A program made the position numbers and the translations under genes. The notes below the pieces were generated by a model. That model searched no databases. It was not told the origin of the DNA and worked only from the letters and a program-made list of their open reading frames with translations. From the NCBI RefSeq assembly GCF_003334335.1, contig NZ_QOWQ01000002.1: a DNA stretch of 64,000 nucleotides; one strand, 5' to 3'. Below are positions 32,675-33,593 of the stretch, piece by piece; positions within the stretch are counted from its first letter, which is position 1, and every line of letters starts with the position of its first letter. The stretch is from Escherichia coli (GTDB lineage: Bacteria > Pseudomonadota > Gammaproteobacteria > Enterobacterales > Enterobacteriaceae).

Positions 32675-33593
32675 GAATCTTGACCTTTTTTGCTGTTATC
32701 GCCACTCCCTGCCGTGGAAGTCAGCTTAGAACAATGTACTCCCCCAGGACGGTGTTTTGAAGGTCTGCAGAATAAGATTTTGCCAGAGGGGAAGGCTCGA
32801 TTGTGCTATTAATAACTTAATAATGACAAAATAATGAGGTGTACATGCTTTACATGCAATGTTATATAGTGAATTGTTCTGATTCTTAATTGTAAGTCTG
32901 GTTTTTTTATCTGTAAGATAATTGTGTGAAAATGCCTCATTTAAGAATTCACTAATGAAACGCGATGATGATATTTCCTCATTACGGAGAGTTTAACTGC
33001 GTGATGATTTCCGAGGTGTCGCAATGGGGGCAAGGTGTGAAACTATTGTTAAGCGGAATTAATGAATGAGGATGATGCTAATTAATTATTATTTAATATT
33101 CAAAAAGGTTTTGATGTGCTTATTAATAATAGAAGATTACTTTGCCTAACATAACATAACTTTGCATCAGATAATTCGCAATGACCCTTATAAATAAAAG
33201 GTTTTTGGGGTAAAATGCTCGGATAAATGACGGATCCCTGCTCTTGATGCCGCCTCACCATTGCTGTTGGTACGTGTTCGCGTATGACCAGCGATGCTGC
33301 ACGAGAGTGGAACAAGGACTCACATTTACATTTATACAAACACGCGCATGTCATAAATAGAAAAGAGTGAGTAACTTAATAGATATGCGATCCCTGAAGA
33401 TATATTCTGTGATCTACTTCAGGCATTATAACGGAACAATGTGAGTCGCTTTTTTAGTGCAACTCATATGCATTTTTACTTTCGTCCGGGTTCCGGATGA
33501 AACTGCCAGGGAGGCACATTACAAATGGAATTGCTTGTTTGTGTGTGCACAGCATTAACCAGCTCAGTATGAGCCGCCAGTAAGTGATAATAT

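Follow-up and report, generated by a model that had tools for sequence, protein, structure and literature searches.

The 919-bp AT-rich gap between the divergently transcribed genes alaA and lrhA of Escherichia coli is very probably a shared control region of the two genes, composed of a long lrhA leader, an AT-rich spacer, and an alaA leader. When published transcription start sites (TSSs) are matched to the sequence, the gap is divided into 52 bp of alaA leader, 496 bp of spacer, and 371 bp of lrhA leader. The transcribed leaders occupy 423 of the 919 bp, and the 496-bp spacer is untranscribed. The TSSs, the length of the lrhA leader, Hfq binding, repression by small RNAs (sRNAs), the site of the sRNA UhpU, and Lrp binding are demonstrated by published experiments. 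They were mapped here onto a 64,000-nucleotide stretch of contig NZ_QOWQ01000002.1 (assembly GCF_003334335.1), designated as the window.

The alaA gene occupies positions 31457-32674 of the minus strand (405 aa), with its start codon ending at 32674, and lrhA occupies 33594-34532 of the plus strand (312 aa); the gap is therefore exactly 32675-33593. The identity of both genes was confirmed by 99.9% identity to E. coli K-12 MG1655 and by the RefSeq annotation. The window runs opposite to the K-12 numbering, and subtracting a window coordinate from 2,440,235 gives the position in NC_000913.3. The curated K-12 record includes no annotated feature within the alaA-lrhA gap. A 1.5-kb query over the gap matched all 5,426 complete E. 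coli genomes, in 16 of which no single location spanned 80% or more of the query. An earlier note, made from the sequence alone, had recognized a gene-free AT-rich region between the divergent genes, and this description holds: the GC content is 38.4% for the whole gap and 30.4% for 32800-33200, against 51.4% for the window and about 50% for the flanking coding sequences. Six runs of at least five A or T are present in the gap.

No other gap in the window is as long on a crude ORF map: those next in size have 691 and 630 bp, and the median is 58 bp. The 691-bp gap (59514-60204) lies between convergent long ORFs, and neither an ORF of at least 90 aa nor an Rfam match at the gathering threshold was found in it. 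The 630-bp gap between lrhA and nuoA (34533-35162) is AT-rich (32-39% GC) and is the known promoter region of the nuo operon, for which the TSS table of Kim et al. 2012 (PMC3415461) lists two nuoA starts, 125 and 128 nt away from the reading frame. The sole Rfam match at gathering score in the window is the nuoG RNA motif (RF01748, 40020-40062, plus strand, 50.3 bits).

The same TSS table (Kim et al. 2012, PLoS Genet, PMC3415461) gives a 5' UTR of 371 nt for lrhA (11 reads) and of 52 nt for yfbQ, the old name of alaA (231 reads). The upstream 51-mers of both genes in that table are found verbatim in the window, ending at 33223 on the plus strand for lrhA and at 32726 on the minus strand for yfbQ. 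The features placed by these start sites are as follows.

33188-33193 (-35, TTATAA) and 33211-33216 (-10, TAAAAT), plus strand: lrhA promoter with a 17-bp spacer
33223-33593, plus strand: lrhA 5' UTR, an Hfq-bound sRNA target of 371 nt (42.9% GC)
32727-33222, both strands: AT-rich spacer between the TSSs, shared regulatory DNA of 496 bp (33.9% GC)
32772-32782, minus strand: CAAAATCTT(A/C)TT element at -56 to -46 of the alaA promoter
32756-32761, minus strand: alaA -35 hexamer TTCAAA, with a 17-bp spacer to the -10 hexamer
32733-32738, minus strand: alaA -10 hexamer TACATT, ending 7 nt upstream of the mapped TSS
32675-32726, minus strand: alaA 5' UTR of 52 nt, whose TSS is the A at 32726
32701-32725, minus strand: hairpin at the 5' terminus of the alaA mRNA (+2 to +26), GCU-G-ACUUCC / loop ACGGCA / GGGAGU-GGC

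Both promoters have the organization of sigma-70 promoters, TTATAA-17-TAAAAT for lrhA and TTCAAA-17-TACATT for alaA, each with its TSS at +7. The lrhA TSS at 33223 lies 7 nt downstream of the -10 hexamer and 371 nt upstream of the AUG. The same length is given by Melamed et al. 2023 (eLife, PMC10578931), where the lrhA 5' UTR is termed unusually long. The primer of the PBAD fusion described there begins at 33223/33224, and the lrhA gBlock reproduces the window from that position. The long 5' leader that had been suggested from the sequence is thus present on the lrhA side. A short lrhA UTR of an older annotation was absent from the data of Bilusic et al. 2014 (PMC4152368). Because the TSS at 33223 is represented by only 11 reads and the short UTR was once annotated, lrhA may also have a minor proximal start. 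A simple scan for consensus promoters recovered neither of the two real promoters, and its three hits are as many as chance alone would give. In the preferred explanation, lrhA is transcribed from a weak distal sigma-70 promoter starting at 33223 to give the 371-nt leader, and alaA from its own sigma-70 promoter starting at 32726 to give a 52-nt leader that opens with a conserved hairpin.

The orthologous locus was collected from 80 species-representative genomes of Enterobacteriaceae, and both genes were on one contig in 79 of them. In all 79, alaA and lrhA are divergent neighbours separated by 764-1140 bp, and by 900-1010 bp in most. Of the 80 sequences, 65 have TTATAA as the lrhA -35 hexamer, 79 have a 17-bp spacer, and 58 have TAAGAT or TAAAAT as the -10 hexamer; the predicted lrhA leader is 334-587 nt long, with a median of 398 nt. 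On the alaA side, CTTCAAA and GAGTA..TT are invariant among 57 non-identical sequences. The T, the A, and the final TT of the -10 hexamer are included in this invariant set, and the 17-bp spacer varies in sequence with no indels. Since the two promoters with their 17-bp spacing, as well as the long leader, are kept across species, the distal lrhA promoter and the long leader are ancestral to the family.

Two records deserve separate mention. In E. coli strain NT1N31 (NZ_CP075480.1), an IS1 interrupts the lrhA 5' UTR at about 33340-33350 in window numbering, some 120 nt past the TSS, and the BLAST pieces show 11 bp of overlap or duplication. The insertion cuts lrhA off from its native promoter. 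The record NZ_JAATUR010000019.1, which carries the label E. coli SCPM-O-B-8794, encodes an LrhA that shares only 94% identity with the protein of the window, and its sequence upstream of the alaA promoter is unlike that of typical E. coli; the strain may come from a cryptic clade of Escherichia and not from E. coli proper.

Upstream of the alaA promoter, the CAAAATCTT(A/C)TT element is kept in most genera and is replaced in the Buttiauxella/Cedecea group. It is a candidate UP-element-like or activator site. A block proximal to alaA (CTTCAAAAC, 13 variable nt, GGGAGTACATT) was considered as a switchable RNA structure or a leader peptide, and both possibilities were rejected. Because of its fixed 17-bp spacing and the mapped TSS, it is a promoter footprint, formed by the -35 and -10 hexamers of alaA, and not an RNA switch. 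The mapped TSS lends no support to an alaA promoter predicted from SELEX, TTAAGA-17-TATAAC at about 32889-32861.

Among the 79 species, the 52-nt alaA leader equals coding DNA in its degree of conservation. In the alignment of its 5'-terminal hairpin, 92% of cells pair and compensatory changes are seen at four of the nine pairs; at one pair, for example, 37 sequences have AU, 9 have GC, and 8 have GU. The observed covariation score was reached by none of 500 shuffles, and slid registers collapse. The loop ACGGCA and its two closing C-G pairs (CC-ACGGCA-GG) are invariant in the 57 enterobacterial sequences, and the outer stem covaries. RNAalifold recovered only five pairs of this hairpin, and it has no Rfam match. 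A 5'-terminal hairpin is ordinarily an mRNA stabiliser. The invariant loop could instead reflect a specific binder rather than simple stabilization. No published description of the alaA 5' hairpin was found in a literature to which access was poor for alaA.

In the spacer, sequence and length behave differently. Column identity is 20-50% over most of its extent, and the two TSSs stay about 495 bp apart (75 of the 80 sequences fall within 481-504 bp), next to an lrhA leader that ranges from 334 to 587 nt at these loci. A length that is held while the sequence drifts suggests a possible architectural constraint, perhaps of the phasing type. Two blocks within the spacer are conserved and fixed in position.

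33036-33100: conserved upstream block TGTGAAA-N4-TTGTTAAG...ATTAATGA...AATTAATTATTATTTAATATT, at about -187 to -123 of the lrhA TSS
33167-33180, plus strand: conserved TCAGATAATTCGCA at -56 to -43 of the lrhA TSS, position-fixed and recognized from the alignment

The upstream block is AT-rich, contains TGTTAAG and paired AATTAAT motifs, and has a column identity of 0.5-0.7. It lies 138-143 bp from the lrhA -35 hexamer in 75 of the 80 sequences, and is a candidate binding region for LrhA, Lrp, or IHF. TCAGATAATTCGCA fits the RcsAB box pattern, T-N2-GA-N4-TC-N2-A. From this motif we infer a possible role of RcsB at lrhA. The upstream block at its fixed distance, TCAGATAATTCGCA at its position, and the held distance between the TSSs appear to be new, as judged from sequence comparison.

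Direct evidence for regulator binding comes from published work. Lrp was located at the lrhA promoter by ChIP-seq, and together with RNA-seq this identified lrhA as a direct target activated by Lrp. With genomic SELEX, Shimada et al. 2014 found peaks of the RpoD holoenzyme within the lrhA-alaA spacer and listed the "920 bp-long lrhA-alaA" among the long spacers that hold many transcription-factor sites. Transposon insertions in the alaA-lrhA gap cause hypermotility in ST131, and insertions there make E. coli overexpress lrhA and Serratia overexpress pigU. These data, together with the position-fixed blocks, agree with the earlier suggestion of multiple regulator sites. Autoregulation by LrhA was reportedly described by Lehnen in 2002. 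In the preferred explanation, the 496-bp AT-rich spacer carries the sites of transcription factors: Lrp, LrhA itself, and possibly RcsB.

The two features that appear to be undescribed, the alaA 5' hairpin and the length-conserved spacer, allow another reading. The hairpin could be a protein or sRNA site for the control of alanine synthesis, and the length-locked spacer could be, for example, an Lrp-wrapped scaffold that couples alaA and lrhA; the two would then constitute a device not described previously. We consider this reading unlikely and put it forward tentatively.

The AT-rich core could also be a silencing tract of the xenogeneic type, bound by H-NS and keeping lrhA and/or alaA off, with the length of the gap serving nucleation and spreading. 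The 30% GC over 32800-33200 and the A/T tracts are of the expected kind, and the insertions that raise the expression of lrhA and pigU act as if a negative element had been removed. However, the insertion phenotype is equally explained if lrhA is severed from a repressive leader. The locus is ancestral rather than acquired, with the gene pair and the spacer length kept in 79 species. In the genomic SELEX table of Shimada et al. 2014, moreover, the H-NS column is blank for the lrhA-alaA spacer, whereas neighbouring spacers are marked HNS. Silencing by nucleoid proteins, as proposed in the earlier note, has no support in the sources consulted, and H-NS silencing is a quite improbable explanation of the gap. 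The shared control region is thus preferred, and its transcribed lrhA side is considered below.

The lrhA leader is bound by Hfq. In Hfq co-immunoprecipitations, Bilusic et al. 2014 (PMC4152368) recovered RNAs of about 150 and about 350 nt from 'ig-lrhA-alaA', which they regarded as pieces of the lrhA leader. They also saw a 1.5-kb lrhA transcript build up in the hfq mutant alone and concluded that lrhA is under repression by Hfq. Melamed et al. 2023 (PMC10578931) report RIL-seq chimeras of the lrhA leader with UhpU, ArcZ, RprA, and McaS. In their work, an lrhA-lacZ translational fusion was repressed by UhpU, ArcZ, and RprA, and McaS had no effect on the fusion in spite of its many chimeras with the leader. 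Later papers repeat and extend the control of lrhA by sRNAs. The pairing sites, demonstrated or predicted, are located near the 3' end of the leader.

33573-33582, plus strand: UhpU pairing site GCCGCCAGUA at -21 to -12; the mutation lrhA-M1 affects C33578, at -16 from the AUG
33500-33516, plus strand: predicted ArcZ pairing site AAACUGCCAGGGAGGCA at -94 to -78, with -19.5 kcal/mol and the ArcZ seed at nt 58-79
33548-33554, plus strand: CACAGCA box, complementary to UGCUGUG common to RprA and McaS

The UhpU pairing was proven by compensatory point mutations, as described by Melamed et al. 2023 (PMC10578931). The lrhA-M1 gBlock differs from the window solely by C to G at 33578, and UhpU-M1 changes ACUGGUG to ACUCGUG (G to C) at the position complementary to C33578G. 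From these two mutations, it follows that UhpU pairs with GCCGCCAGUA, just upstream of the weak GUGA-type ribosome-binding site. Unconstrained RNAduplex runs of the sRNAs against the lrhA leader gave meaningless whole-molecule duplexes and were discarded. A windowed duplex scan gave an ambiguous ranking in which the proven UhpU site (-20.1 kcal/mol) came only fourth for UhpU, and the positions for ArcZ and RprA are therefore predictions only. The segment 33500-33516 is the best seed-compatible site for ArcZ, and its core AGGGA(A/G) is kept in most genera; ArcZ would pair here according to the duplex model. Pairing of ArcZ in the 5' UTR is established for the orthologues hexA and pecT. The CACAGCA box is nearly invariant among 45 sequences, its predicted duplex is weak (-14.8 kcal/mol), and it is a candidate site for RprA and McaS.

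The conservation of the leader is concentrated in the same part. The distal 280 nt (247-361 nt in the different species) show a column identity of 25-45%, and the last approximately 90 nt show 0.54-0.78. The conserved blocks proximal to lrhA are AGGGA(A/G), GGAATTGC, CACAGCA, and CC(A/T)GTAAGTGA. The target sites in relatives are accordingly kept as the AGGGA, GGAATTGC, CACAGCA, and CCNGTAAGTGA blocks. In the preferred explanation, the synthesis of LrhA is lowered by UhpU, ArcZ, and RprA, which pair within the last approximately 100 nt of the Hfq-bound leader. LrhA is a repressor of flhDC and of rprA/rpoS, and this sRNA control ties it to flagellar, envelope-stress, and oxygen signals.

A short upstream ORF (uORF) was recognized in the same segment.

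33510-33514 (GGAGG) and 33525-33572 (ATG to TGA), plus strand: Shine-Dalgarno sequence and uORF of 15 codons, encoding the peptide MELLVCVCTALTSSV

The uORF was missed in the first ORF list because it is shorter than the 20-aa floor of the ORF tool. The spacing between GGAGG and ATG is 10 nt, which contradicts the earlier statement that the short ORFs of the gap are not preceded by ribosome-binding sites. The region of the uORF (33510-33572) overlaps the predicted ArcZ site. In the 80 sequences, the triplet at the uORF start was scored by regular expression as ATG in 26 and as AAG, AGG, or ACG in 43, and 10 were unscored; four of the unscored sequences show ATGGAGTTG by eye, and ATG is thus present in at least 30 of 80. 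Where the ATG is present, the peptides range from 4 to more than 30 aa and have nothing in common beyond MEL. The start codon, the frame, and the peptide all vary across the 80 sequences, and the uORF is probably not a conserved coding element. The nucleotides kept at its start are A-N-GGAATTGC. Because the ATG is patchy and the peptides are dissimilar, this block is conserved as nucleic acid and not as peptide. No literature linking lrhA with a uORF was found. The 15-codon uORF, limited to a few lineages, and the conserved alaA 5' hairpin are minor details that apparently have not been reported.

The Hfq-bound bands of 150 and 350 nt, and the strong GGAGG with an ATG at a suitable distance, could also be taken as signs that the gap encodes an independent sRNA or small protein, such as the 150-nt species or the 15-aa product of the uORF. 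However, in the gene-assigned table of Kim et al. 2012 no further TSS falls between those of lrhA and alaA, nothing is annotated here in the curated K-12 record, and the peptide of the uORF is not conserved. A terminator scan found no terminator-like site within the gap, its single match being inside the alaA coding sequence. The covariance search for conserved RNAs, which the earlier note had recommended, revealed no Rfam family: on both strands of the gap, at E-values up to 10, only chance-level matches to eukaryotic snoRNAs, miRNAs, and CRISPR repeats were obtained, with E-values of at least 0.15 and scores far below gathering. No conserved ORF was found in the gap among the 79-80 species compared. 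Since an Rfam family, a terminator, an additional TSS, and a conserved ORF are all lacking, an independent sRNA or small-protein gene is very unlikely. Of the unannotated sRNA once suggested, what stands is the existence of the Hfq-bound RNAs of about 150 and 350 nt; they are treated as fragments of the leader and have no TSS, terminator, or Rfam family of their own. A ligand- or protein-sensing lrhA leader (riboswitch-like or a thermosensor), in which the sRNAs would be secondary, is highly improbable, for although the whole leader folds at -112.1 kcal/mol and is more stable than its shuffles (z = -2.57; one shuffle in 100 did as well) and the signals controlling LrhA are said to be unknown by Melamed et al. 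2023 (PMC10578931), the distal 280 nt are poorly conserved and variable in length, RNAalifold gave no consensus structure in the conserved proximal part, and the leader belongs to no Rfam family.

An lrhA leader controlled by Hfq and sRNAs, as favoured here, resembles the leaders of rpoS, flhDC, and csgD. All of them are unusually long, are bound by Hfq, and belong to mRNAs of master regulators, and several sRNAs (ArcZ, RprA, McaS, and others) converge on their last approximately 100 nt. ArcZ and RprA are common to lrhA and rpoS, and ArcZ and McaS to lrhA and flhDC. The ribosome-binding site of rpoS is sequestered in a long inhibitory hairpin, whereas that of lrhA is of the weak GUGA type and is not sequestered in this way. 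Another difference from this group is that every sRNA effect on the lrhA fusion described by Melamed et al. was repression, and McaS was without effect.

The genes hexA, pecT, and pigU of Photorhabdus, Dickeya, Pectobacterium, and Serratia are orthologues of lrhA and were compared through the literature. Serratia pigU, like lrhA, encodes a LysR regulator, is divergent from alaA, and is overexpressed upon insertions in the gap. The UhpU-lrhA pairing was reported as an innovation of Escherichia, and its CC(A/T)GTAAGTGA block is conserved family-wide. Shimada et al. grouped the 920-bp lrhA-alaA spacer with csgD-csgB (755 bp) and nanC-fimB (1456 bp), which are likewise long spacers before regulators of stress or lifestyle with many transcription-factor sites. 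Unlike these two, nearly half of the lrhA-alaA gap (423 of 919 bp) is transcribed leader, and far fewer factors have been mapped on its 496-bp spacer.

The TSSs, the long leader, Hfq, three sRNAs, and Lrp have all been published, and the region is therefore already known. The value of the present analysis lies in assigning exact window coordinates to these known parts; no hidden gene or RNA family was revealed, and the alaA 5' hairpin and the length-conserved spacer are the loose ends that apparently have not been described. In E. coli and its relatives, LrhA stands near the top of the hierarchy controlling motility, RpoS, fimbriae, and CRISPR-Cas, and for this reason the place and the mode of lrhA control matter.
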